This document shows positions 3,001 to 59,480 of a stretch of 64,000 nt of DNA, piece by piece. Location of the stretch: positions 64,001 to 128,000 of IMG/VR virus record IMGVR_UViG_3300028591_000109, one strand, 5' to 3'. The stretch's first letter is position 1, and every line of letters starts with the position of its first letter. The stretch is from a virus. Its lineage: Duplodnaviria > Caudoviricetes. Below the pieces are notes generated by a model that did not search any database, was not told the DNA's origin, and saw only the letters and a program-made list of their open reading frames with translations. The translations under genes and the position numbers were made by a program.

Positions 3001-5153
3001 TCGGTGCGCTGGGCATCCAGGAGGGGCGCGTGAGCAGAGCCAACTCGCTCATCGGTGCAGGAGTAGCCAGCGAGCGCGTCGCCGATAAGCTCGCCATCCA
3101 GCAGCTGAAGGTGCAACTGGCCATGCAGCAGTATCAGTACAGTCTGGTGCATAAGATAGGTAAGGAGAAGATAGATATGCTGCGACGCGAGGCGGAGATG
3201 GAGTCGGACGCGGAGAAAGCCCGTCAGCTGAGGATGCAGGCACAGAACGCCGAAATGGCGCTGAACCTTGCCACCCGCAAGGAGCAGACCGACGAACTGA
3301 AACTGCAGGAAGATATCATCGCCAAGACGGAAGAGTCTGAGGCACGGCTCTATAAGGAGTTGCGCGAGTGGGCCGACCTGCTGACGAGCAGTTTGCAGGG
3401 CGTGATGGAGGCGAGCCATGCCGGCGATGCGGAATACTACAACGAGCTGGCGAAGCTGAACTTGACCGGCAAAGGCGGGCCAGGCGCAGGCACCTACATC
3501 GTCATTGACGATGCAGGCACCAGCGACGCCACCGCGCACTACGAATACCTCGACGAGCGGCAGGCCCTGGAGCGCGAGCACGAGATAGAGCAGCAGAACG
3601 CCCAGGCCGAGGCATGGAAGAAGGTGATGGATGACATCAACATGAAACTCAGCGAGACCATCACCGACCAGATCAATGCCATGCTGCAGAACCAGAGCAT
3701 TGATGCGAATACACAAGCGGTGCTTGCCAACACGCAAGCCATCTATGCGTCGATGGGGCAGAGTGCAGGTACAGGCGAGGGAATCACCCGCAATGCAGAG
3801 GGTTTCGCCGTTGACGAGAGCGGACAGGTGATATCGCCTATACAGCCGACGGAACCGACAAGTCAGCCGGAAGCCGAGACTCCAGCATGGAAGCCTTTCT
3901 GGCAGATGACGGACGAGGAGAAGGCCAAGAATCAGGAGAACATGACCGAGATGTTCGGCATGTACAGAGACCTTAGCGTGCAGACCGAGACGGAGAAAGC
4001 GGAATTGCTGGCCGAGGTGCCGGGATATACGCCTCCTGCCATCAGCATGACCGATGAGCAGATAGAGTCGGTAGGCGAGAAACTGGAAGCTCTCAACCAA
4101 AAGGAGATAGATGCAAGCAAGAAGAAGACGCAGGCTATTCTGGCCGACCAACAGGCGATAAAGCAGGGCGAGTTGCAGACCGACAAGACGATGACGCAAT
4201 CATCGAAGAACATGTACGCAGCCATGATGTCGGCTGCCAACCTCTACGGCGTGGCTTATCAGGCCATGACCAACGATAACTTGAGCGCTGAGCAGAAGTT
4301 CCAGATGATTGCCCTGCAGGCGGCAGGACAGTCGGCCATCGCAATGATGCAGACTAACATGTTCAAGTCCGAGACGGGCGCCCTCGTAGCACTGCCGCAA
4401 ATCCTTGCCGAGTGCTTGGAAATCAACCCGATTGCCGGTGCCGCCATCTTCGCCGTGCTGAGTGCCCTGCTGGGCGTGGCCATCGGAGCAGCCACCAGCA
4501 AGCTGGCCAAGGGTAAGTCGGAGGTGGCGCAAGTCACAGGTGCCAGCGCATCCGCTGGTCGCCTCTCGACGGGTATGCTGACCTACGCCGAAGGTAACGT
4601 GAACGAGTTTACTGACCCGGCATCGCTGACGCCGGGCCGACAGTACAACGTGGACGGGGCGGACGGCAAGACCTACCGCGCCCGGTACATGGGCAAGGGA
4701 GCCAAGACCCACATCACCAACGGGCCGGAGTTTCACCTCGTGGGCGAGGCAGGCCGCGAGGCCATCATCGACGCGAAGACCACCCGCCTGCTGCAGATGA
4801 ACGAGACCGGCATCTGGCGCGACATACAGACGCTCTACAACGGCGGCAGCATCGCGGGGCTGAGCACCCGCCGCCGTCGCGGCACTGGCGTGGCCGCTTT
4901 CGCGGATGGCAACGTCGGGGAGTTCGAGGAGATGGCTGATGGCGGAGGGCTGACGGCTGATGGAACGGGCGGCATGAACGCCGACGTGATGACCTCAATG
5001 CTGGAAACCAACAGCCGACTGGCCGACCTCTTGGAGAACGCCCTTGCGAACGGCATCAAGGCCGTAAACAAATGGACGGGCAGCGACGGCATCCCTGCGA
5101 TGTATAACAAGATGCAGAAGGAGGCGCAAAGGCACGGTGAGAAATACCTGTAG
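6..5153 (+). CDS. Phage tail tape measure protein (5'-truncated by window edge)
   Basis: 1715+ aa, Ala/Glu/Gln/Lys-rich helical protein with hydrophobic stretches and a C-terminal LVGEAGREAIID motif typical of TMP ends; virion gene context. Confidence 0.85.
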   Translation: MNAAADAVEGMLGRSVSMQDVMKQLNQQGARAGIVFGLLSQNVDTLEKQLKIATDAYRDNTALMAEYNKMNDTTAAKWERLKNQLEEAFVSDSIQRGLGSLIDMLRGLVDFITGNVTGVLQSLRTAFLMLAAAATVYRIELGKMIFVESLSGLSNLKKALVGVKDTILLTAMYTKDYIALKWKLIFAHGAEEKAAIKAKIATLGLNKALTANVWMAVVAAIGMLLLKLYQFNKAAKEAAAETGRFNQQIADEQKALNKLFEPLNRSNMAQEERLKLINEINSKYGKYLGYMLSETSSAIALADAHALIAKRIREEAYEKRIAEKEAKIQDEHSEDVNAAYTKITERVRGSVRGGASAQEIADVLKGIVDNRLGSIKYAYDDSDNIFKARTNYYLDPKIKQAIDGGIERLIVDGKLSRDNVTLIQKAVYKYTVEAHSQHKDIMNQTSNLRSDLRGVQSAIKVDLANNLNTLVSRVASSVGNAVRNIRQQQQPQQNVPLMLQQPQGQGSRLPSLFGGGQQGGWQAPWQQGRETTPQQQAAPKGWKPNIDKKDTEAVRQFVQDQEALRSALNASGNQIDEAQRRVAESWLLTDAELKEYKKIVEKADRGPGGSNHNPYGDYNKVTSPYKEWNGNDLVARRKEMLERVKALANGADVQAVLSEDAKFISEAVRKNIKTTDQAIEWYNTERLKIQDALHAKHLTNTGDWMDPEKVRKRVGRVVNDEMKYYLDELDAYYTERKAKIQEAQNDQEISEAEARNRTLANDAEWQQRRAELQLLYSKRRGEVVQQEQDEIFRIISERTGETTAYIKADIAQTNHLIEETGKKNKAAMDRIYGDIELGAERSFLRQRNAIGQHMKDITAIVNKENPYAGIAEELRKNLGTMDALLTDIEKEEERTMEKEIERTMFILEQSTKGYSLTWEQLMGEMAKRGWQAWADAIDGDSQTQQRLMHQVYRVFEKVQDAIKKEASELKKQADIMWSNILLPGGDGKTTIKDAFEQAIGALGIQEGRVSRANSLIGAGVASERVADKLAIQQLKVQLAMQQYQYSLVHKIGKEKIDMLRREAEMESDAEKARQLRMQAQNAEMALNLATRKEQTDELKLQEDIIAKTEESEARLYKELREWADLLTSSLQGVMEASHAGDAEYYNELAKLNLTGKGGPGAGTYIVIDDAGTSDATAHYEYLDERQALEREHEIEQQNAQAEAWKKVMDDINMKLSETITDQINAMLQNQSIDANTQAVLANTQAIYASMGQSAGTGEGITRNAEGFAVDESGQVISPIQPTEPTSQPEAETPAWKPFWQMTDEEKAKNQENMTEMFGMYRDLSVQTETEKAELLAEVPGYTPPAISMTDEQIESVGEKLEALNQKEIDASKKKTQAILADQQAIKQGELQTDKTMTQSSKNMYAAMMSAANLYGVAYQAMTNDNLSAEQKFQMIALQAAGQSAIAMMQTNMFKSETGALVALPQILAECLEINPIAGAAIFAVLSALLGVAIGAATSKLAKGKSEVAQVTGASASAGRLSTGMLTYAEGNVNEFTDPASLTPGRQYNVDGADGKTYRARYMGKGAKTHITNGPEFHLVGEAGREAIIDAKTTRLLQMNETGIWRDIQTLYNGGSIAGLSTRRRRGTGVAAFADGNVGEFEEMADGGGLTADGTGGMNADVMTSMLETNSRLADLLENALANGIKAVNKWTGSDGIPAMYNKMQKEAQRHGEKYL

Positions 5154-5156
5154 TCC

Positions 5157-5185
5157 ATTGAACATTGAATATTGAACATTGAAAA
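5157..5185. repeat. Heptamer tandem repeat (CATTGAA)n
   Basis: cattgaa cattgaa tattgaa cattgaa; reverse-complement copy at 62305-62336. Confidence 0.85.
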
Positions 5186-5194
5186 TTAACGGGT

Positions 5195-5387
5195 CGCTTC
5201 GCTTGGATAATTTGAAATCAATTTGAACAATTTCCCGCGAAGCGGCCTTCTCTTAATTTCTCGCGAAGCGATACTTGACAAGGATGGCCTGACGGCCAGT
5301 AATCGAGGTTCATCCTCGCTTCGCTCGTCGAAGAAATTAGAGACTACAGCCTGACGGCTGGAAATTTCTCAAATTAAATTCAAATTT
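5195..5387. repeat. Cluster of AATTTC-hairpin elements without an adjacent nuclease gene
   Basis: Copies at 5229-5245, 5255-5271 and 5347-5366; shares ATAATTTGAA...AATTTGAACAATTTCC and GAAATTAGAGACT with the elements at 44.9 and 45.9 kb. Confidence 0.8.
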
Positions 5388-5401
5388 ACCATCTCTTGCA
5401 C

Positions 5402-5435
5402 TGCCCTTGATTTCCAAACCTTTTCGCACGATATT
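5402..5435 (+). promoter_or_regulatory. Phage-specific promoter-like motif TGCCCTTGA-N20-ATATT (1 of 9)
   Basis: Exact 20-nt spacer; 20 nt upstream of the ATG at 5456. Confidence 0.75.
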
Positions 5436-5455
5436 GCGGGAAAACAACGACGACT

Positions 5456-6736
5456 ATGTTAGTAACGACACAGAACGAGATTCAGAGCCTGATGCCTACG
5501 GCCCGGTGGGACAAGCCGCAGGTACTGTTCGGCTACTTAGAGGAAGAGGAAGCGGTGGCATTAGAGCCGCTGCTGGGGGCTTCGCTCTATCAGCATGTGC
5601 TGACGGAGTACGACCGGCTACGGCAGGAGTACATCGACATCACGGCTACCACCGTGCGGCCTACGGGCAAGGCCAAGCAGGACCCGCGTTTGGCGCATGC
5701 CGACGTGACGGAACGGCTGGAGCAGGTGGCGCAGGGAAAATACCGCGAGACCTACACCACGCCGGAGGAGGGCGAGAAGGAGGTGCCAGCCGCCGATATG
5801 AAGACCATCCAACTGATACGCATCTGCCAGCGCATCGAGTGGTACAGGATGCTGGCCAACAAGGCCGGACTGCTGACTATCTCGTTCAACGAGGGCGGCG
5901 GCATGAACATATCCGTAGGCGAGAGCTACGACGCTGCCGACGAGAAGGCGAAAGATCGCGCTGTGAAGGACGCGTTGGGCGGAGCCGGACGTGCCATCGA
6001 CTCGCTACTGCTGTTCCTCGAAGCCGACGCAAAGGGGGAGAAGCTGTTTACCGAGATGTGGCAGGAAGCTGATGCCTTCTACCTGAACAAAGACCTGCTG
6101 TTCCAGACGGCGACAGTGCTCGACAAGTTCCTTGACATCAAGAATCAGCGCATGGCGTATGTCTCGCTGGTGAGAGACATCCGCTTCTGTCAGAATACTT
6201 ACCTGAAGCCGAGGATTGGGGCGAAGTTGCTGAAGGCCGTGGTGGCCTTTGCCAACGACGGGGAGGCTGCGATACTATCGCAGCAAACGGGACAGGACGG
6301 CGAGGGGGCGACGGCGGGGAGCGCTGAGCATTTCGAGGAACTGCTCGAATTGCTCCGCATCGCACTGGCCTTCTATGTCGAGAGCCGACGGACGACCATC
6401 ACGCGGACAAGTCTGACGGTGAGCACGTCGGCGAGGGGCACGGGAAGCAGCATCGAGAAGGAGGAGCGGCTGGCACGGCGCGACTCTATGACCGACGCGC
6501 AACAGGCAATGGCGATGGCATGCGACTATATCGCCGAGAACCTGGAGGCGCTGGGCGACGCGGCGGTGGGTACACCTATATATAATATCGCGCGCGAGAG
6601 GGAAGCGCAGGCGGAGCGCGAGCGGCAGTGCGCCTGTGCGGCAGAGGCGCGGCGCAGGAAGGCGGCATGCGAGCAGAGCCGCAAGCGGCTGTTCACCGCT
6701 TTCCCGGCGACGCACCGGACACCGGAGATAAAATAA
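5456..6736 (+). CDS. Virion morphogenesis protein, possibly head-tail connector-like
   Basis: 426 aa, ACGACTATG leader, two repeated LG..LY/IG..LL helical units, position before protease and capsid genes. Confidence 0.55.
   Translation: MLVTTQNEIQSLMPTARWDKPQVLFGYLEEEEAVALEPLLGASLYQHVLTEYDRLRQEYIDITATTVRPTGKAKQDPRLAHADVTERLEQVAQGKYRETYTTPEEGEKEVPAADMKTIQLIRICQRIEWYRMLANKAGLLTISFNEGGGMNISVGESYDAADEKAKDRAVKDALGGAGRAIDSLLLFLEADAKGEKLFTEMWQEADAFYLNKDLLFQTATVLDKFLDIKNQRMAYVSLVRDIRFCQNTYLKPRIGAKLLKAVVAFANDGEAAILSQQTGQDGEGATAGSAEHFEELLELLRIALAFYVESRRTTITRTSLTVSTSARGTGSSIEKEERLARRDSMTDAQQAMAMACDYIAENLEALGDAAVGTPIYNIAREREAQAERERQCACAAEARRRKAACEQSRKRLFTAFPATHRTPEIK
6263..6300. repeat. REP-like palindrome inserted in frame in a CDS
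   Basis: gaggctgcgatactatcgcagcaaacgggacaggacgg; 36/38 identical to the reverse complement of 57703-57740. Confidence 0.85.
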
Positions 6737-41283: not shown

Positions 41284-42402
41284 ATGCGACAGACAACAAA
41301 CGAAACACAGGCCCTACAGTCGCTGATGGCAGAGTTTATCCGACTGGTAGCCTATCAGAACGAGAAACCCGTATTCGACGACGAAGGCATGGTGGCGCTT
41401 AGTGCCGACAACGCCTCGCCAGTCTATTTCTCCACCCGCCAGGTCATTGCCATCGCCCGACTGCTGAAGGGTATGACAAAGCCGCAGGGATGGCGCGACG
41501 CCGACGTGCAGATTATCTACGAGCTGGCAGCCAAGGCCGAACAGCGCGAAAGCGACGACCCCGACCACCTGCTGCGCACGATGATGCAGATTCACGGAAG
41601 CCATCAGGACTACGCCCCCACCATGCTCAACTCGCAATGGAGCGAAGAGAAGCAGACGATGACCGTCAGTCTGGAAGAGATGTTTGCCGGCCAGCCCGTA
41701 TTGCCGTGGCTCAGCAATGTGCGCTATGCCGCCGACGAGACCGAGAAGGCAGTCTGTTACGCCATCACCGCCGCCGTGCTGCGTTATACCGACGACGACA
41801 CAGTGCTTACCTTTATCGCCCACCCCAGCGACGCCAAGCAAGTGGAGCGGCAGATGGACGGCGAACTGTTCCCACGCAAGGAATGGGAGGGCGAGTGCGA
41901 GCTTCCGTCAGAAGCGCTGACTCCAAGCAGTAAGAAAGAGATAGCCGACTACATGCTCGAAGCCCTGCAGCAGGATCCCCAAGAAGCGTGGCCGCTCAGA
42001 CAGTCCGAGCCGGGAGCAACGTGGTTTGCACCGCGACACGGCGTGGTGGAGATTGACGGCATACCTGTGCCGACGGCCATCAACGAGTTCAGCTCAGCCA
42101 ACATCCTGAGCGTAGAAGTGGGTACCAACGGATTCCAGGGTGGCGACACCGGTCACGGCGGACGCACCTGCCTGCGCATCATTGACGAGGGTTGTACCGA
42201 CCTGCGCTGCCGCGTCAAGGCCAACGGCAAGTGGCATAACTACGACAACGCCTGCGAAGCCAATGAGATAGAAATCATACTTGGCGGTGACACCGAGCTT
42301 GGCACCTTCAGCAACGCCCTTCGCTTTGCCGCAGACGTGCTGGAGAAGAAGATAACGGGCGAGCTGATGCTGGTCGTTCCGAAAAACTACAAGCAGCAAT
42401 GA
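41284..42402 (+). CDS. Hypothetical protein
   Basis: 372 aa; C-terminal GTNGFQGGDTGHGGRT motif. Confidence 0.65.
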   Translation: MRQTTNETQALQSLMAEFIRLVAYQNEKPVFDDEGMVALSADNASPVYFSTRQVIAIARLLKGMTKPQGWRDADVQIIYELAAKAEQRESDDPDHLLRTMMQIHGSHQDYAPTMLNSQWSEEKQTMTVSLEEMFAGQPVLPWLSNVRYAADETEKAVCYAITAAVLRYTDDDTVLTFIAHPSDAKQVERQMDGELFPRKEWEGECELPSEALTPSSKKEIADYMLEALQQDPQEAWPLRQSEPGATWFAPRHGVVEIDGIPVPTAINEFSSANILSVEVGTNGFQGGDTGHGGRTCLRIIDEGCTDLRCRVKANGKWHNYDNACEANEIEIILGGDTELGTFSNALRFAADVLEKKITGELMLVVPKNYKQQ

Positions 42403-43485: not shown

Positions 43486-44364
43486 TCAGAAGTCGTAGTT
43501 ATCCTCCCCACTCCACTCGCCGTTGACGGTGAAACCGAAGCCGCTCTGGGTGATGGTGCCCTCGCCTTCGGAGAAGAGGGGGCCGGTGTAGCTGGTGATG
43601 CGGTTGCGCGTGACGGGGACGGCATCGAGGGTTCGCTTCTTGATCACGTCGCCCTGGGCGGTGAGGGCGGTGATGGTGACTTTCAACGTGCCGGAGGAGG
43701 AGAGATAAGGGAAGGTGAAGATTTCGTAGACGTCATCGGCGGCAACAGGGCGCGTCTCTGATTGTGTCGATTTCGTGGTGCCCTCGCCGGTGGTGGGGTT
43801 GAAGTTGGCCGAGCCGCCGGTGTAGTCGAACTTGACATGCGTGAGCTGAGCGGGGATTTCCTCGTCGGTGAACTGGAAGCGCACCATAGCGCCCATGCGG
43901 TTCATCGTGAGCTGGTGCTGTTCGGGTGCTTCGCCAACGGTCACGGTGCCGCCATAGCAGAAGGTGTCCGTCAGCTTCTGGCCGTCGCTGGCCGTGAACT
44001 GCACCATCTCCATGCTCTTGATGGTGGCACTCTTGGCCGACGAGTGACCGACGGCCACCACGCCATACTCCCCGGCAGGCAGCGTGAGCGACAGCTGTCC
44101 GAAGTTCTCGTCGGTGGAGTATTGCGTGCGCACCTTGTCGAAATACTTAGTGCCGTCGGCATTGAACAGCATGACGTTGAGCTTCGAGAAGCAGGTGCCA
44201 ATGTCGGTGGCGGCGGCGCGGGTCGTCGCGCCGTGGGCGCTGAACGTGAGGGTCACGTTGCCAAGTGGTTCGTTACTGTCCTCTGTGTCGAGGATGGGTT
44301 TCTCGCAGGCGACGAGTGCCATGCTGATTGCGCACAGGACGCAGAGATTCTTGATTGCTTTCAT
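43486..44364 (-). CDS. FimB/Mfa2-type fimbrial lipoprotein 1
   Basis: Lipobox ALVA-C, TRA processing motif, VPVTRNRITSYTG C-terminal strand. Confidence 0.75.
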   Translation of the reverse strand: MKAIKNLCVLCAISMALVACEKPILDTEDSNEPLGNVTLTFSAHGATTRAAATDIGTCFSKLNVMLFNADGTKYFDKVRTQYSTDENFGQLSLTLPAGEYGVVAVGHSSAKSATIKSMEMVQFTASDGQKLTDTFCYGGTVTVGEAPEQHQLTMNRMGAMVRFQFTDEEIPAQLTHVKFDYTGGSANFNPTTGEGTTKSTQSETRPVAADDVYEIFTFPYLSSSGTLKVTITALTAQGDVIKKRTLDAVPVTRNRITSYTGPLFSEGEGTITQSGFGFTVNGEWSGEDNYDF

Positions 44365-44430
44365 TGTTTCTTTGGTGTTTAGCCGTCTTACGACGGGAAA
44401 TTAATCAAATTTTGTTCAAATTATTAAATA

Positions 44431-44853
44431 TCAGAGAAGTTTTACCTTTTCGATGCGCCCATCGTTATGCCGATGAAACCACTCTGCGTAGAGACTCGGC
44501 GCACCGAAATTGATAATCATGCCGTATGGCTGATGCGTCAGATTCATGTAGTTAAACAGTTGTCTACGATGACAGGTTTCAACATGCGATACAGCTTTCA
44601 ACTCACAGATGATGTTGCCGCCAATCATCAAGTCCATACGGTACGACTGATCTAACTGAACGTCGTCCCAGAATATTGGGAGGTACACCTGCCGCTCCAC
44701 CTGTACTCCTTTCAGTTCCAGCAGGTATTTTAGAGCGGCCTCGTAGGCACTTTCCACCAGTCCTGGCTTGAACTTGCGGTGTACGCGCATGGCTTCGCCA
44801 GTGATGTCGGCAAAGAACTGATACCGCTGGTTGTATTCTTTTATCAAATCCAT
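44431..44853 (-). CDS. GxxExxY protein 1 (PD-(D/E)xK nuclease fold)
   Basis: GLVESAY, YRMDL, IICELKAV, QLFNYM and GMIINFG motifs. Confidence 0.9.
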   Translation of the reverse strand: MDLIKEYNQRYQFFADITGEAMRVHRKFKPGLVESAYEAALKYLLELKGVQVERQVYLPIFWDDVQLDQSYRMDLMIGGNIICELKAVSHVETCHRRQLFNYMNLTHQPYGMIINFGAPSLYAEWFHRHNDGRIEKVKLL

Positions 44854-44990
44854 AGTTGGGTGTTTTAAACCGTCTTACGACGGGAAATTATTCAAATTAT
44901 TCTCAAATTATTCAACCCTGCGGATGGAAAAGTTCTAATAATTTGAATTAAATTTGAACAATTTCCACCCGTCAGGGTGCTCAGAAGTCA

Positions 44991-45863
44991 TCAGAACTCC
45001 ACGGTGTCGAACTCCTGCCAGTCATTGACCGTGAAGGTGGAGGTGAAGGCGGCATCGGTGAAGAAGGCGCCGCGATACGTGGTGCGGTAGCCGTTGCAAA
45101 GGGGCACGTCGTCGAAGGTGCGCTGCTGGAGGGGCTGGCCGGCGGTGTCGTAGGCGGTGACGGTGACGGTGTGGAGCACGGACTCGTCGGGGTCAGCGAT
45201 GACGTAGGCGGAGAGGGTCACGCTGCCGTCCTGATTGAGGTTGTAGCCTTGGTAGGTGGCAGTGTAATCACGGGGGTTCATGCCATAGCCGGCGACGTTC
45301 CATGCGGCGGGAGCCTGGTCAACGGCGATGGTGATCTTGTCGGCCTCGGAGGGCACGGGGTCGGTGGTCTCCAGTCGGAACTGGCCCACGATGCGCTGCA
45401 TGAGGCACGAGAGCGTGGTGGTCTCGGCGGGGGTGAACGTCTGGGTATAGAACATCGAGTGGGTCATCTTCGCGCCCGGCCAGGTGATGATACCGCCTTG
45501 CAGGGTAGCCGCGCCGGTGTCCTTATGGGCACAGGCATAGAGCGTGTAGGTCTTGCGCTTGTCGAGGGTGACGGTGAGGGAGCCGAAGGCTGGGTCGGTG
45601 CTGGTCTGGTGGACGGCCTGCACCTCCTGGCCGTCCTGGTAGAGCCAGACATCAAGGCGGGTGGCGATGGTGGCGATGCTGGTGGGGTCACCTCCGGCAC
45701 GGGTCATGGCCTCCTGCTCGTAGGGCGAGAAGGTGAGCGTCACCTTCTGCGGATCGTTCACGTTGGCGGGGTTCATCACTGTGCTCTCTGTTTCGAGGGC
45801 GTTGTTTTCACAGGCTGTCAGTGCCATCAGGGCACACGACAGCAGGGCAAAATACTTCTTCAT
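44991..45863 (-). CDS. FimB/Mfa2-type fimbrial lipoprotein 2
   Basis: Lipobox ALTA-C, MTRA motif, VPLCNGYRTTYRG; paralog of lipoprotein 1. Confidence 0.75.
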   Translation of the reverse strand: MKKYFALLSCALMALTACENNALETESTVMNPANVNDPQKVTLTFSPYEQEAMTRAGGDPTSIATIATRLDVWLYQDGQEVQAVHQTSTDPAFGSLTVTLDKRKTYTLYACAHKDTGAATLQGGIITWPGAKMTHSMFYTQTFTPAETTTLSCLMQRIVGQFRLETTDPVPSEADKITIAVDQAPAAWNVAGYGMNPRDYTATYQGYNLNQDGSVTLSAYVIADPDESVLHTVTVTAYDTAGQPLQQRTFDDVPLCNGYRTTYRGAFFTDAAFTSTFTVNDWQEFDTVEF

Positions 45864-46021
45864 AGTTTTGCTTGGGTTTTAAGTTTGTTGATGATTGGGG
45901 TTTATTATGGCCTTACGGCCAGAAATTAGAGACTGCCGCCGTTGGCGGGAAATTTTTTTATTGCACTTAATTTCTCGGCGACAGCCGATAGTCTGAAAAT
46001 TTCTGCGCGATAGCGCATCCA

Positions 46022-46444
46022 TTACAGCAGCTTCACCTGTTCTACCTCGCCGGTCGTCACATTGAGTTCGTACCATTCGCTGTAGAGACTCTTGCTGCCA
46101 AAGTTGATAATCATGCCATACCTCGTATGAGTGATGCGCATATAGCTCCAGAGTTGCTGGCGGTGTTCAACGCTCACGAATTTCACCGCCTTCAGTTCGC
46201 AGATGACGCCGCCGACCACGAGGTCCATACGGTACGACTGGTCGAGGGGCACGTCGTCCCAGAAGATGGGCAGGTACACCTGCCGCTCCACCTTCATGCC
46301 TTTCAGTTCCAGCAGGTACTTCAGCGCCGCCTCGTAGGCGCTCTCCACCAGTCCGGGTCTGAACTTGCGGTGTACGCGCATGGCTTCGCCCGTGATGTCG
46401 GCAAAGAACTGATACCGCTGGTTGTGTTCCTTGATTGCATCCAT
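46022..46444 (-). CDS. GxxExxY protein 2
   Basis: 140 aa; close paralog of 44431-44853. Confidence 0.9.
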   Translation of the reverse strand: MDAIKEHNQRYQFFADITGEAMRVHRKFRPGLVESAYEAALKYLLELKGMKVERQVYLPIFWDDVPLDQSYRMDLVVGGVICELKAVKFVSVEHRQQLWSYMRITHTRYGMIINFGSKSLYSEWYELNVTTGEVEQVKLL

Positions 46445-46640
46445 AGTTTTGCTTGGGTTTTAAGTTAATAATTGGGTTGTTTTGTTAGCGCCCTTGCGGG
46501 CGGAAATTGTAAGAAAATTGGGTAAGAAAATGCGCTTCGCTTGAAAAGAATTTTTATAATCACTGCAAGAATTTTTATAATTTTCTTACAAGCGGAGCGC
46601 ATTCTTTTAGAATTTCCCGCCGACAGGCGGCTAAGAATAG

Positions 46641-46668
46641 AAAAGCCGCTCCTTTGCGGGAGCGGCTG
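46641..46668 (-). terminator. Intrinsic terminator
   Basis: agccgctcc/ggagcggct stem with T-tract on the minus strand. Confidence 0.75.
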
Positions 46669-54389: not shown

Positions 54390-57300
54390 TTACGCCGCCT
54401 GCTTCAGCCCGCCGTCGCTCTCGGAGGCATTGCCCTCGGAGCCGCCGGACTGCTTGCCGTTCATCTCAGCGTTGATCTTGCGGTCGAGCTTGGCGAGGTC
54501 GGCCTTGGCCTGGCGCAGCTCGTCCTCCTTTGGCCACGTCTGCTTCAACAGTTCGTCGAGCTGGCGGATAGTCACGTTGTTGTCGGCTATCCAGCGTTGC
54601 CAGTCGGCGATGCGGCGGGGTAGTTCCTGCAGACAGCGCAGACCATACTCCGCTGCCCGACGGGGCGAAACATGGGAGAGTTTGCCGTTATTCATGGTGT
54701 GCAGGATGCGGTTGCCTTGCAGCGAGAAGAGGTTGGTATATTCCATCGACTCGTTGCCGTCGATATCACGGAAAATCTGCTCGTTGGTCTTCACCAGCAG
54801 GTCGAAGCCGTATAGCGAGCCTATCTTCAGGCGGACACCCTGCGTGCGGGCTGTCTGCTCGATGCGCCACAGCCGCTCACCGATGGCCTTCTCATAGTCG
54901 GGGCTCCCGACGGCAAAACCGTCGGGCACACTAAATCCGTCGAGCGTGAGAGCGTTCAGCACCGTGCCGTCCTCATAGCGAGTAAGGCGCTTCCGCTCAT
55001 ACTGCTGCTGGTCGGCCTGTGCATCGCTCACGTCCTGCTTCAGCCGCTCCACGTCCTTCTGCAGTCGGTCGCGGCGCTCCTCTGCCTGTCGCTGGTCGCG
55101 GTGGAAGTTCTTGCGCTCCACCTCTAAGGCGGCAATCTTCTTGTCGAGCTTGGCACGCTCCAGCAGGTCGGTGTTGCCGGAGAGGATAGCCATGTACTCG
55201 GCGAAGTTCATGTTGCCTTTCTCGTCCATGCTTCCCTCGTCGAGGGTGCGCTTGCCCAACTGCCCCTGCTTCAGCTGCTGGATAAAGGTCTGCTTGCAGT
55301 GCAGCAGATTGAACTTATAGGCATCCAACGACCGCTTCACGGCGTAGATGATCACATCCACCTTGTTGTCGCCATAGTCGCGGGCTATCACGTTGCCCTT
55401 ACGCACGGCCCTGCCGTCGCGCTGCTCCAGGTCGGCGGGGCGCCAGGGGGTGTCGAGGTGATGCACCGCCACCACTCGCTCCTGGGCGTTGACCCCCGTG
55501 CCGAGCATCGAGGTAGAGCCGAAGAGGATGCGCACGTCGCCGTCGTTCACCTCGTGGATGAGTTTCTTCTTTTTCGTGTCGCACCGTGCCTCCTGTATGA
55601 AGCGTATCTCCGAGGCCGGTATGCCGTAGTCCTCCACCAGCTTGCGCTTGATTTCCTCGTAGATGTTGAACTTCCCGTCGTTTTGCCACGTCGAGAGGTC
55701 CGAGAATATCATCTGCGTACCCTTCACATCCTCGAACTTGTGATAGTACTGGGCCACCATCTTGGCACACATGCTCGCCTTGCTCCGTGGGTGGTCGCCA
55801 TACGACGGGTCGATGAGCCGCATGTCGAGACTCATCTTGCGGGCCAGGTCGGTAGCATACAGCATCTTCGCCATCTCCTGCTGCTTGGTGGGGTTGTCGA
55901 TACCTATCAGCGAGAAGTCGCCCGTCTCGGCAAACTTCATCAGCGTGTGGATAAACTCTGCCTGGTCGGGGGTCGGTTCGATGTGCATCAGTCGGGCATA
56001 CTTATCAGGGCGCTCGATGCCTACGTCCTTTGCCGTGCGGTAGTCGGTGATTTCATTATAGAACTGCGCCAGCTCCGGCACCTTGATAAAGTAGCGGAAG
56101 CGCTCCTTTAGCACTATCTGATTGGTCAACCCGAACTCATACTCCTGCGTCTTGCGGGTGAAGATAGCCGCCCAGGCATCGAAACAGGTGATGCCCTGCT
56201 TGGCCATCGCCTGCGGTCGCAGATAGCGGAACAGGCTGTACAGCTCCGTCAGACTGTTCGTAATCGTCGTGCCACTGAGGAACGTCGCGCCGAGGTCACG
56301 CCCCGTGCGCTGCTGAATGGTGCGTATGGCCATCAGCAGATTGTAGGCCCGCTTGCTTCCGTCCGTGTTGCCTAAGCCTGCCACGCGGTCGTGACGGGTG
56401 GTGAAGCCCAGGTTCTTGAACTGGTGGCTCTCGTCGATGAAGATGTGGTCGATACCCATCATCTTGAAGTCCACCACGTCGTCGGTGCGCTTGCGAATAG
56501 AGTATTGCAAGTCCTGAAGTTTCGATTGCAAGTTGGCTTTCTTCTTCTCCAGTCCGCGCTTCAGCCGGCTCGATACGCTGTCCCACGAGCCATACAGTGC
56601 GCTCAGACTCTCGTTCAGGTGATTCAGTTCCTCACGGATCACGTCGGCCTGCACCTCGTCCGACTGCGGTATGAAGCCGAACTGGTCGTGGCTCATGATC
56701 ACCACGTCCCAGTCGTTGTTCTTCATGCGGTTGAAGAAGTTCTCACGCTCCTTGCCTGAGTAGTCGGCATGCTTGGCATAGAGCACACGGGCCTTGGGGT
56801 AAGCCGTCATATACGTCTCGGCGATGGCGGCCACGTTGGCCTTCAGTCCGATAATCATCGGCTTGTGGCAGAAGCCCAGTCGCTTCATCTCGTGGGCGGC
56901 GAGACACATGATAAGCGTCTTGCCACTGCCTACCTCGTGGTCGCAGATGCCACCACCGTTCATCGTGAGCATCCAGATGCAGTCCTCCTGGCTCTTATAC
57001 AGACCGCCGCTCACCTTCTTGCCGTCCTTATACACCGGCTGCGGTATGCCGTACTTCGCCTCCAGCCCCTGCCAGTCGATGCCGGGGAACCGCTGGTGGC
57101 TTCCGTCGAACTGCGGCTTCACGTGGCAGTTGAACAGTCGGTTGTATTTGTCAGTCAGTCCGTCGCGCAGCGCCTTCGGCTGTCGCAAGAGCCAGTCCTG
57201 ATAGCCCTGTCTGATTTCCTCAATCAGCGTGTTAGCCTTCTGTGTAGCCTCCGGATCCTCGTCCTTCTCATAGCTCTTACCGCTGGCGGTCTTAATCTTG

Positions 57301-59480
57301 CGACCCCGCTCGTCGCGGCGATACTTCATCATCTTGGGACAGCTGTTCTGCAGTGCATGCACCAGCAGATCCATACCGTCGAGCGACTGGCTCGCCTCAC
57401 TACTCACGGCATACTGCGTATATATTTTCTCGTTGCCACGGTCACTGGCACAGGCATACTGATCCAGGTTGCGATCGTACTTCACCGTCACTTCCACCTT
57501 TGCACCGTAGTCATTGCCAGCCATCGAAAAGAACTCCGAGGCAAAGTCCTCGTAGATTTTGCAGTCCACCCATCGCTCACCCAGGTTGAAGTCCAGGTCA
57601 TCGAAGGGGATAGGCTCAGGGACGGCGGCCTGCAGGGCTTGAAGTGAAGAGTGAATAGTGAAGAGTGAAGAATTTGCTGCCGCCGTCAGGTTGCCGCTTC
57701 GTCCGTCCTGTCCCGTATGCTGCGATAGTGTCGCAGCCTCCGGGTACTTCTGCAGGATAGCATCAATCTTCTCAATCACATTCCCTGAGATGAACCTCGC
57801 CTTAATCTCCCACTCCTCACTCAGGGGATTATAGTATATCTCCCCGTCCAGCTCGTCGCATATCTCTTCCTCACTCTTGCCAGTCAGCGCAGCCATATAC
57901 CTCACATCGGGCTTGCCATAGTCATTCAGGCTCTGCGCCAGCGCCTCGTGACTGTCCGTCACGCTGTGCATCTCGTCGGTCGAGAACGCCACCGGCCTGT
58001 CGAAGATGTCGGCCTTGCGCCACTTGCCATCCTCCAGAATCTCCAGCGTCAGCAGTTCCTTGTTGATAGCCTTGGCCATCTTCCTGTTCGGCTCCTGGTT
58101 CAGCGGGCCCCACTCCAGACGGTATTCATCATACAGGCGGTTCAGCTCCTTGCGCATCTCCGTGCCCTCCTGCATCTCCTTGGCCTCGTAGTCATACAGG
58201 CGGCGGTAACAGTCGAACATGTCAGCCATCTGTTGCTCCTTCTTCGGGTCAAACGACGAGCGCCCGCTCTTGCGCTCCTGCTTTGCACCCTTCCCGCCGT
58301 CAGTGTGCTCGGCGGTTTTGCCGCCGAGTTCCGCGTCGAGCTTCTCCGCCAGGTCCTTGCTCAGCACCTCGCCCAGCTGCTGTGCAATCCCCTGCACACC
58401 GTCGCGGTGCTTATACACAAACGCCCGCTTTCCATAGGCATCCGTATCAACCGTCCACGCCGTGGCAATCACCCGCTCCGGCCACATGTCGAAGTACATA
58501 TTCGTCGGGCATCCCTCATCTTCATACTGCGTCAGCAGCATCGTCTCTTCCTCTGTCAGCTCGCCTCGCTTCGAGTCCTTCTGCATCACTAAGAGGTCGG
58601 TGCCCACCTCCGTGCCGCTCTCCTTAAAGAGATTGTTCGCCAACCGATACGCCCCGATGAGCCGTGCCTGCTTCAGTGCCTCGCCCAACTGTTCACCGTC
58701 ACGGTTCAGGTAGTTGCTCGTGATGATATAAGCAAGCACCCCACCCTCTCGCAGGCAGTCCAGCCCCTTCAACACATAGTAGCGGTGAATCATGCGGGCA
58801 GCATCCCTGCGCACCTGACTCTTCGAGTTCGTATAGTCCGGATCAAACACGCGGATATCGCCGAAGGGAACATTCGTAGCCACCAGGTCATACATACCCA
58901 GCTCAGATGCCGGGATAGTCTCGAAGCCGTCACAGTAAACAGCGGTTCGTCTGTTGATTGTGGTCAGCGTCATCTTCGCCTTCAGCAACGTCGCCGTCAG
59001 TATATCCTTCTCGAAGCAGGTAGCATGATACTTTTTGTAGTCGCGATGATTGGTAAGATAATAGTTCGCCATATCAGTAAACACGCCCCCACCGGCCGCA
59101 GGGTCAAGGAAATTGCGATAGGCTATTCCGCCAAGCCCACATTCAAACATCGAATGATGTTCAATAGCCTTGAAGATGGCTTCCACCACCTCCCGTGGCG
59201 TATAATAAGCCGTCAGCGTGCTTGCCTTCAGGCTCTTCACCCATGCCTCGTAATCCCGCTCGCTGCTGCTATACTCCTTTAAGATGTTGTGCAGCTTTAC
59301 TGTCAGTTCGTAGTACTGCAAGTCGCTCTTGCTCCATACGCTCTTCTCCAGCGGGTTCAGCACGAATGTCATCCCCCCGAAGCCCGTGTACTTGCTCAGC
59401 GTCTCTGCGTCATACTTGGTAGCACTCAGTGCGTGCCATATTGCCTCAATGTTGTCTATCAGTCGTTGTAATTTGCTCAT
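54390..59480 (-). CDS. N6-adenine methyltransferase-SNF2 helicase fusion (DarB-like)
   Basis: LDPAAGGG (motif I), NVPFG (motif IV), HEVGSGKT, DESHQFKN, LSGTTITNS and QRDGRAVR. Confidence 0.9.
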   Translation of the reverse strand: MSKLQRLIDNIEAIWHALSATKYDAETLSKYTGFGGMTFVLNPLEKSVWSKSDLQYYELTVKLHNILKEYSSSERDYEAWVKSLKASTLTAYYTPREVVEAIFKAIEHHSMFECGLGGIAYRNFLDPAAGGGVFTDMANYYLTNHRDYKKYHATCFEKDILTATLLKAKMTLTTINRRTAVYCDGFETIPASELGMYDLVATNVPFGDIRVFDPDYTNSKSQVRRDAARMIHRYYVLKGLDCLREGGVLAYIITSNYLNRDGEQLGEALKQARLIGAYRLANNLFKESGTEVGTDLLVMQKDSKRGELTEEETMLLTQYEDEGCPTNMYFDMWPERVIATAWTVDTDAYGKRAFVYKHRDGVQGIAQQLGEVLSKDLAEKLDAELGGKTAEHTDGGKGAKQERKSGRSSFDPKKEQQMADMFDCYRRLYDYEAKEMQEGTEMRKELNRLYDEYRLEWGPLNQEPNRKMAKAINKELLTLEILEDGKWRKADIFDRPVAFSTDEMHSVTDSHEALAQSLNDYGKPDVRYMAALTGKSEEEICDELDGEIYYNPLSEEWEIKARFISGNVIEKIDAILQKYPEAATLSQHTGQDGRSGNLTAAANSSLFTIHSSLQALQAAVPEPIPFDDLDFNLGERWVDCKIYEDFASEFFSMAGNDYGAKVEVTVKYDRNLDQYACASDRGNEKIYTQYAVSSEASQSLDGMDLLVHALQNSCPKMMKYRRDERGRKIKTASGKSYEKDEDPEATQKANTLIEEIRQGYQDWLLRQPKALRDGLTDKYNRLFNCHVKPQFDGSHQRFPGIDWQGLEAKYGIPQPVYKDGKKVSGGLYKSQEDCIWMLTMNGGGICDHEVGSGKTLIMCLAAHEMKRLGFCHKPMIIGLKANVAAIAETYMTAYPKARVLYAKHADYSGKERENFFNRMKNNDWDVVIMSHDQFGFIPQSDEVQADVIREELNHLNESLSALYGSWDSVSSRLKRGLEKKKANLQSKLQDLQYSIRKRTDDVVDFKMMGIDHIFIDESHQFKNLGFTTRHDRVAGLGNTDGSKRAYNLLMAIRTIQQRTGRDLGATFLSGTTITNSLTELYSLFRYLRPQAMAKQGITCFDAWAAIFTRKTQEYEFGLTNQIVLKERFRYFIKVPELAQFYNEITDYRTAKDVGIERPDKYARLMHIEPTPDQAEFIHTLMKFAETGDFSLIGIDNPTKQQEMAKMLYATDLARKMSLDMRLIDPSYGDHPRSKASMCAKMVAQYYHKFEDVKGTQMIFSDLSTWQNDGKFNIYEEIKRKLVEDYGIPASEIRFIQEARCDTKKKKLIHEVNDGDVRILFGSTSMLGTGVNAQERVVAVHHLDTPWRPADLEQRDGRAVRKGNVIARDYGDNKVDVIIYAVKRSLDAYKFNLLHCKQTFIQQLKQGQLGKRTLDEGSMDEKGNMNFAEYMAILSGNTDLLERAKLDKKIAALEVERKNFHRDQRQAEERRDRLQKDVERLKQDVSDAQADQQQYERKRLTRYEDGTVLNALTLDGFSVPDGFAVGSPDYEKAIGERLWRIEQTARTQGVRLKIGSLYGFDLLVKTNEQIFRDIDGNESMEYTNLFSLQGNRILHTMNNGKLSHVSPRRAAEYGLRCLQELPRRIADWQRWIADNNVTIRQLDELLKQTWPKEDELRQAKADLAKLDRKINAEMNGKQSGGSEGNASESDGGLKQAA
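57641..57740. repeat. In-frame composite repeat insertion (REP palindrome plus heptamer element)
   Basis: Encodes EAATLSQHTGQDGRSGNLTAAANSSLFTIHSSL; both halves match intergenic repeats elsewhere in the window. Confidence 0.85.

Follow-up and report, generated by a model that had tools for sequence, protein, structure and literature searches.

We analysed a 64,000-nt stretch (the window; positions 64,001 to 128,000) of the Caudoviricetes record IMGVR_UViG_3300028591_000109, a phage record of 141,567 bases rated complete, and found that its two GxxExxY genes, which encode predicted nucleases and stand beside two fimbrillin-like genes, vary among relatives from rumen metagenomes together with the hairpin-forming repeats that flank them. 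We consider it probable that these genes and their repeats form a mobile nuclease-plus-hairpin cassette whose exchange takes place by recombination at the boundaries between genes. Read along the minus strand, the locus runs from an intrinsic terminator-like hairpin (46644–46667) through GxxExxY-2 (Gx2), fim2 and GxxExxY-1 (Gx1) to fim1; the gap 5′ of fim2 is referred to as site 2 and the gap between fim2 and fim1 as site 1.

Both nuclease-like proteins, Gx1 (44431–44853, minus strand) and Gx2 (46022–46444, minus strand), are 140 residues long, and profile searches placed them clearly in the GxxExxY/PDDEXK_3 family, as each passed the cut-offs of TIGR04256 (117.8 and 110.4 bits respectively, against 35) and PF13366 (110.3 bits for Gx1). 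Residues Glu34, Asp74, Glu83 and Lys85 were invariant among 46 nuclease homologues, and the catalytic-type residues of Gx1 appear intact. In every nuclease pair for which the synonymous rate (dS) could be computed, the non-synonymous rate (dN) was far below it, indicating strong purifying selection. An AlphaFold model of Gx2, with a pLDDT (predicted local distance difference test) score of 96, had a restriction-endonuclease-like fold whose top structural matches, all with middling Z scores, were BpuSI (Z 8.1, root mean square deviation 2.8, 101 aligned residues), 3ijm (Z 7.6) and SwaI (Z 7.5). A Foldseek search gave nothing at E ≤ 0.001, the best matches being Cas4-like and Hjc-type nucleases. 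By modelled fold and by the E…D…ExK residues, both proteins fit the PD-(D/E)XK superfamily and are predicted to be nucleases. Their closest chromosomal homologues were from Prevotellaceae and other Bacteroidales. The function of PDDEXK_3 is listed as unknown, and the family has undergone multiple horizontal transfers (PMC3424549). In a literature search that had most subscription papers outside its reach, we found no paper linking GxxExxY/PDDEXK_3 to flanking repeats or mobility.

The original prediction had described a 43-bp direct repeat around Gx1 and had read it as a duplication of the leader of the downstream fimbrillin gene. Recomputation bore out the description: the copies at 44383–44425 and 44870–44912 are identical at 39 of 43 positions, with the first 21 bp exact, and end 18 nt before the start codon of fim1 and 16 nt before that of Gx1 respectively, as predicted (16–18 bp). 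The interpretation did not hold at site 1, where the repeat turned out to be an arm of a dispersed hairpin family similar to repetitive extragenic palindromic (REP) elements. Each arm consists of a 5-bp GC stem with a TNNC loop, a GAAATT tag and an AT-rich array; stems vary between copies yet remain paired, and the tag is conserved. Perfect arm copies occurred 22 times in the 141-kb phage and never in 50 local shuffles. The arms are found singly or as inverted doublets, three of which lie in the locus (44870–44979, 45908–46017 and 46485–46634) and fold with z scores of −4.7 to −6.4, in agreement with the claim that a hairpin element precedes each leader. The first doublet (44870–44979; z −6.4) lies between the fim2 stop codon and the Gx1 leader, and its right arm (44870–44915) supplies the 5′ copy of the 43-bp repeat; the 3′ copy is a single right arm on the minus strand (44383–44428; AT-rich array, AATTTC tag and 5-bp hairpin) following the Gx1 stop codon. 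The order at site 1 is left arm, right arm, leader, Gx1, right arm, leader and fim1, and the 43-bp direct repeat is therefore the right arm used twice.

The empty site-1 alleles L003, L110 and L012 held no copy of the 43-bp repeat (scores of 11–16 against 66), and the repeat was present at an unrelated gene boundary in other phages (L198, score 49). Because it is missing from the former and present at the latter, it does not belong to the native fim1 leader; the same alleles rule it out as a target-site or leader duplication. The hairpin-to-ATG spacing is likewise a trait of the arm family, since five single right arms outside the window (positions 41374, 42173, 45551, 52096 and 56344 of the phage genome, all before the window) begin at a stop codon and end 18–21 nt before the next ATG. 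Phage G001 differs at the orthologous boundaries, where it has an arm of another subtype, a repeat of another family or additional genes. The translation initiation region of Bacteroidetes is A-rich and unstructured (PMC6847099), and we infer that the spacing reflects selection keeping this region intact. At 5150–5470 of the window, after a 3075-residue open reading frame (ORF), such arms form another nested cluster, which has no nuclease gene. Comparison with known RNA families gave sub-threshold Rfam matches only, and an exact scan of viral contigs for the site-2 arm gave no match. The arms were not called as terminators, and a sigma-70 scan, whose model does not cover Bacteroidota promoters, gave six weak matches in them against 2.2 expected. 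A promoter-like motif, GCCCTTG-N19/20-TANNWT, has six copies in the window against 0.08 expected (6945, 8795, 22495, 27966, 28105 and 31558) and none at the fimbrillin locus.

At site 1, five nuclease lineages with mutual nucleotide identities of 65–71% were found in phages whose fim2 genes are 85–93% identical. Each lineage has its own arm subtype, and the cassettes fill the same interval, which opens just past the fim2 stop codon and closes shortly ahead of the fim1 leader. Further alleles are empty there or contain unrelated palindromes, HNH genes or an IS1595 element with a restriction–modification pair, and distant relatives have their two fimbrillin genes side by side, separated by short spacers free of repeats. 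Together with the alleles of site 2 below, this series supported the earlier view that the nuclease genes are accessory and mobile at independent, hairpin-marked sites. In L113 (3135–5037), HNH/NUMOD4-like genes and other ORFs stand in place of the nuclease cassette, and in L008 (913–5000) an IS1595-like transposase, a C5 methyltransferase and a probable restriction gene, assigned from translations, lie between the fimbrillin genes. Boundaries of the same kind are taken up by unrelated families of short-unit repeats or palindromes in L003 (2495–2610), L110 (1236–1330), L012 (3833–3883) and the phage genome itself (58330–58420), which suggests that several repeat systems compete at these gene boundaries.

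The predicted gain or loss of a gene between repeats, with one copy left behind, was seen at site 1 for non-nuclease cargo. L105 and L192 carry, ahead of the nuclease, a gene for a 69-residue protein (L105:1333-1542 and L192:3036-3245) that is framed by two right arms, giving the stack left arm, right arm, ORF, right arm, nuclease, right arm; L111, with the same nuclease lineage, has one arm and lacks the passenger. An Atlas search with the passenger returned hypothetical clusters only, at 0.78–0.79, below the useful range. No site-1 allele had a single arm and no nuclease, L107 and L014 ending after the doublet.

A crossover was also detected inside a nuclease gene. Gx2 is a chimera, in which nt 1–240 are 95–100% identical to the L012 gene and the remainder is 67–68% identical. 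The nested cluster 3′ of Gx2 (45908–46017; z −4.7) is of a second, different subtype, which also stands next to Gx2-like genes at site 1 in L017 and at a locus without fimbrillin genes in L018, and this cluster travels with the C-terminal half of Gx2. In L018 (2538–3423), the Gx2-like gene (84% amino acid identity) stands right after a helix-turn-helix gene and has kept the 3′ arm subtype of the window.

The association of nuclease and arms extends beyond this phage. We compared 80 host and phage loci, mostly on host chromosomes, picked by similarity to the nuclease alignment, and a strict detector found arms beside 60 of the 80 nuclease genes; its control (14/943) is lenient since it is mostly coding DNA, and mismatched pairs are the better control. 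By the latter, a direct score of at least 60 between the upstream and downstream flanks of one locus was obtained at 38 of the 80 loci, against 2% of mismatched pairs. The gene frequently lies inside the doublet (left arm, gene, right arm) or has a doublet on both sides. Among 69 loci, the downstream genes fell into about 50 families, and none matched fim1 or fim2. Flank similarity tracked nuclease identity over 75 loci (2743 pairs with unrelated neighbours; rho 0.49, 0/500 permutations), in a test that ignores host relatedness, and 92–100% of pairs shared flanks at protein identities of at least 80%, against 1–3% below 70%. Since flank similarity follows nuclease identity, the nuclease gene and its arm subtype seem to reach new loci together. 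Two nuclease genes on host chromosomes (L079:2001-2030 and L097:2001-2183) have early stops with arms still flanking them; they are possibly decaying cassettes or assembly errors.

Could these patterns arise from passive shuffling of modules, as described for the promoter early stem-loop (PeSL) elements of the T4-type phages RB49 and phi1 (PMC2839356)? On this account, homologous recombination by phage or host enzymes between the arms would move whatever lies between them, with GxxExxY as a frequent cargo; the arms would serve as spacers with a regulatory or RNA-structural role, or would be REPs that a host enzyme moves, and the nuclease would be kept for its own benefit, for example by excluding competing phages. 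The PeSLs are a precedent, being stem-loop modules at phage gene boundaries between whose direct copies genes are gained or lost with one copy left, as in L105/L192 against L111 and in L012 or the window against L148 (below); mini-circles, a further PeSL feature (PMC2839356), correspond to the excised circles that the original prediction expected. The gain or loss of the 69-residue passenger, the single arms before many ordinary phage genes at the usual 18–21 nt from the ATG, and the crossovers inside the nuclease gene, which show ordinary recombination at work, all speak for it. So do 4 of 40 homology-block ends against G001 that lie within 60 bp of an arm, compared with 1.7% at random and with an intergenic bias left uncorrected; the corresponding counts were 1/16 for G002, hardly enriched, and 0/12 for G003, not enriched. 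However, PeSLs are promoter–terminator units without a partner nuclease, whereas no promoter was shown in the arms by the sigma-70 scan, and these arms also populate host chromosomes and track the nuclease lineage. Passive shuffling leaves unexplained why, at unrelated chromosomal loci in different Bacteroidales families, each nuclease is still accompanied by its own arm subtype, and why the gene so frequently sits at the centre of a doublet. We regard purely passive movement, the main rival, as rather unlikely.

The original prediction had proposed a different mechanism, in which the nuclease genes inserted at hairpin-marked sites, duplicated the leader of the host gene and could be cleanly excised between the repeats. 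The case for it comes from site 2. The predicted identity of the leaders of Gx2 and fim2 was exact, as 46442–46466 and 45861–45885 are the same 25-mer with the ATG included, and the repeat continues imperfectly to about 35–40 nt. The 3′ copy (45861–45900, minus strand) is the native fim2 leader, which directly follows the terminator in 14 distinct nuclease-free alleles (L001, L002, L003, L105, L107, L110–L115, L144, L156 and L192). The copy before Gx2 (46442–46477, minus strand; 25 nt exact, ~35 nt imperfect) is fused to the nuclease gene at the ATG, and its variant also precedes fim2 in the empty allele L113 and the filled allele L150. Judged from these alleles, the 25-nt repeat at site 2 is a true captured fim2 leader, and to this extent the claimed duplication stands. 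Upstream of it, a 150-bp REP-like doublet (46485–46634; z −4.95) lies between leader and terminator; the terminator forms the left boundary of the site-2 insertion, and homology between the window and the empty alleles ends at 46636. In L119, L141 and L143, a different insert of ~130 nt lies between terminator and fim2 leader.

An empty allele with a single repeat copy, as expected from clean excision, was found once, at site 2. L148 has the doublet without a nuclease, and its sequence matches the 5′ copy as far as the leader and, from there on, the 3′ leader variant; it is either the predicted excision product or a state preceding the nuclease. In L012 and L014–L016, doublet, leader and ATG (~165 bp) form a direct repeat on both sides of the nuclease, which would also agree with leader duplication. 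In contrast, 14 of the 15 nuclease-free site-2 alleles break outside the 25-nt repeats: they lack the 150-bp upstream doublet too, and because of this they do not come from simple recombination between the 25-mers. Breaks of this kind count in part against the original prediction by its own terms. The Gx2-like gene of L019 has another leader and no upstream doublet, and comparison of the ends of the site-2 doublet with the empty alleles revealed no duplication of target DNA. As to site 1, its repeat is missing from empty alleles and found at unrelated genes. At the 69 host loci, the likeness between the nuclease leader and that of the next gene (median 11) was no better than in mismatched controls (median 10), compared with scores of 50 for site 2 and 21 for site 1 of the window. 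Leader duplication as a general mark of insertion was thus largely refuted by the host loci, and a mechanism of this kind is very unlikely. Since these loci show no such duplication, the capture at site 2 was a one-off: the leader duplication is real at one site, yet a local accident and not the mechanism.

Alternatively, the nuclease might be an ancestral, functional member of the fimbrillin operon, for instance in RNA processing at the hairpins, with the empty alleles as secondary losses. The fim1 gene (43486–44364, minus strand), the host gene on the 3′ side of site 1, encodes a FimB/Mfa2-like lipoprotein of 292 residues, and fim2 (44991–45863, minus strand) encodes its 290-residue fimbrillin-like lipoprotein paralogue, with a weak DUF6562 match. 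The fimbrillin label of both rests on homologues with PF08842, a Pfam profile that none of the fimbrillin-like proteins of the window matched directly (fim1 had no direct Pfam match at all): most close fim1 homologues (55–94% identity) carry PF08842 Mfa2, and some are named as FimB/Mfa2 family. Strong purifying selection and the presence of fimbrillin-like genes beside six of seven viral matches would suit an operon member. However, distant fimbrillin pairs lacking any repeat, host copies with some 50 different neighbours and no fim1 or fim2 match downstream, and a nuclease divergence far above that of the flanks make this explanation less likely still. A single tandem duplication of a nuclease–fimbrillin unit, already doubted in the original prediction, is ruled out by the independent variation of the two sites and by the identity of Gx1 to Gx2 (75%), which is much higher than that of the two fimbrillin proteins (29%). 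No PHROGs family was matched by any of the four locus genes. Elsewhere in the window (54390–59480, minus strand) there is a gene for a 1696-residue DarB-like methyltransferase/helicase (phrog_10089, E 3.6e-251).

We therefore return to the mobile cassette as the probable explanation. The cassette would comprise a small PD-(D/E)XK nuclease gene and flanking arms of its own hairpin subtype, and arms lacking a gene, single or as doublets, are found across the phage and on host chromosomes. Arms fill the space from a stop codon or terminator to the A-rich leader that follows, and typically end 16–21 nt before the ATG. Cassettes would be gained, lost and exchanged there through crossovers located in the arms, the leaders and the conserved 5′ portion of the nuclease gene. 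At site 2, a lone doublet before fim2, as in L148, may be the first or the last state, and one past recombination event would have joined the nuclease ORF, at its ATG, to a copied fim2 leader and so produced the tandem duplication of doublet and leader; the short ACTATG common to many nuclease starts and fim2 plausibly helped. The repeat family, presence and absence of the gene, allele replacement, co-variation, the intragenic crossover, purifying selection and the fold were all observed, and the direction of each gain or loss is inferred. Whether movement starts with the nuclease recognizing and cleaving its cognate arms is close to evenly balanced in our judgement, with a slight lean against: the co-variation, the intact residues, and the finding of no RAYT (REP-associated tyrosine transposase) or integrase in the phage would argue for such a role. 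Searches of the phage gave no match to Y1/RAYT transposases (PF01797), no tyrosine integrase (PF00589) and no four-helix-bundle intervening sequence (IVS) gene over threshold; host chromosomes were outside the RAYT search.

Several points weigh against the mobile cassette or its nuclease-driven movement. A host RAYT could move the repeats in trans. Co-variation of nuclease and arms is also expected from plain linkage, or if the resident repeat subtype of a host lands beside any gene, and other, unrelated repeat families fill the same sites in other alleles. A quick tree of the nucleases (141 columns, many forks open) spoke for the cassette in one respect, as the site-1 genes of L118, L148 and L150 grouped with host and other-phage genes apart from the rest (97% support in the Shimodaira–Hasegawa-like approximate likelihood ratio test), and against it in another, as most phage fimbrillin-site nucleases formed one group (89% support). 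Because of this one group and the fimbrillin-like neighbours of most viral matches, much can be explained by nucleases that have long resided at these sites and undergone allele replacement, with no need for fresh transposition.

The mobile cassette most closely resembles the 'REPtrons' formed by REP/REPIN elements and RAYTs (PMC8266576 and PMC3733652). In both, tagged intergenic hairpins are dispersed, often as inverted doublets, the enzyme gene lies between cognate hairpins, and enzyme and repeat co-vary (here with the rho given above, kinship uncontrolled). In contrast, the flanked enzyme is here a PF13366 protein of PD-(D/E)XK fold, whereas that of REPtrons is an HUH/Y1 tyrosine transposase; the tag is GAAATT with long AT-rich arrays instead of GTAG or CGTC; and the cassette, known here from sequence only, is polymorphic and swapped among close phages. 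The hairpin–nuclease system thus looks like REP/RAYT and may work like it, yet is not a member, having the wrong enzyme and the wrong tag. In integrons, promoterless ORFs, each followed by an imperfect palindrome (attC), are stacked in tandem. The tandem stacking of arms and ORFs in L105 and L192 is similar, but the phage has no tyrosine integrase, no attC core sites were recognized, and the arms are dispersed rather than in one array. Unlike an insertion sequence with target-site duplication, the cassette left no fresh duplication at the ends of the site-2 doublet or in the 69 host loci. Tentatively, and with the balance clearly against it, the GxxExxY proteins could be dedicated mobilizing enzymes of an undescribed hairpin-repeat system, each cutting its cognate arm subtype, spreading doublets that lack a gene to gene boundaries, and capturing and stacking passenger genes. 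Arms would then become cassette junctions because they end just before translation leaders, and a PD-(D/E)XK nuclease would thereby build an integron-like array with neither integrase nor HUH transposase.

Taken together, the locus adds an allelic series in close phages, a doublet-only allele, the capture of a passenger gene between arms, and a crossover by which the 3′ arm subtype is tied to the C-terminal half of the nuclease. For the large GxxExxY/PDDEXK_3 family, which has no known function, the locus supplies matched natural substrates: several nuclease alleles with their own arm subtypes at one site, together with empty, repeat-only and passenger-carrying alleles, so that cognate specificity is directly testable. 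If the nuclease does not mobilize the repeats, the locus remains a clear example of gene exchange between repeats in the manner of PeSLs. If it does, it would represent a second enzymatic route to REP-like families besides RAYT, and would provide a mechanism for gene-by-gene shuffling in rumen Bacteroidales phages.

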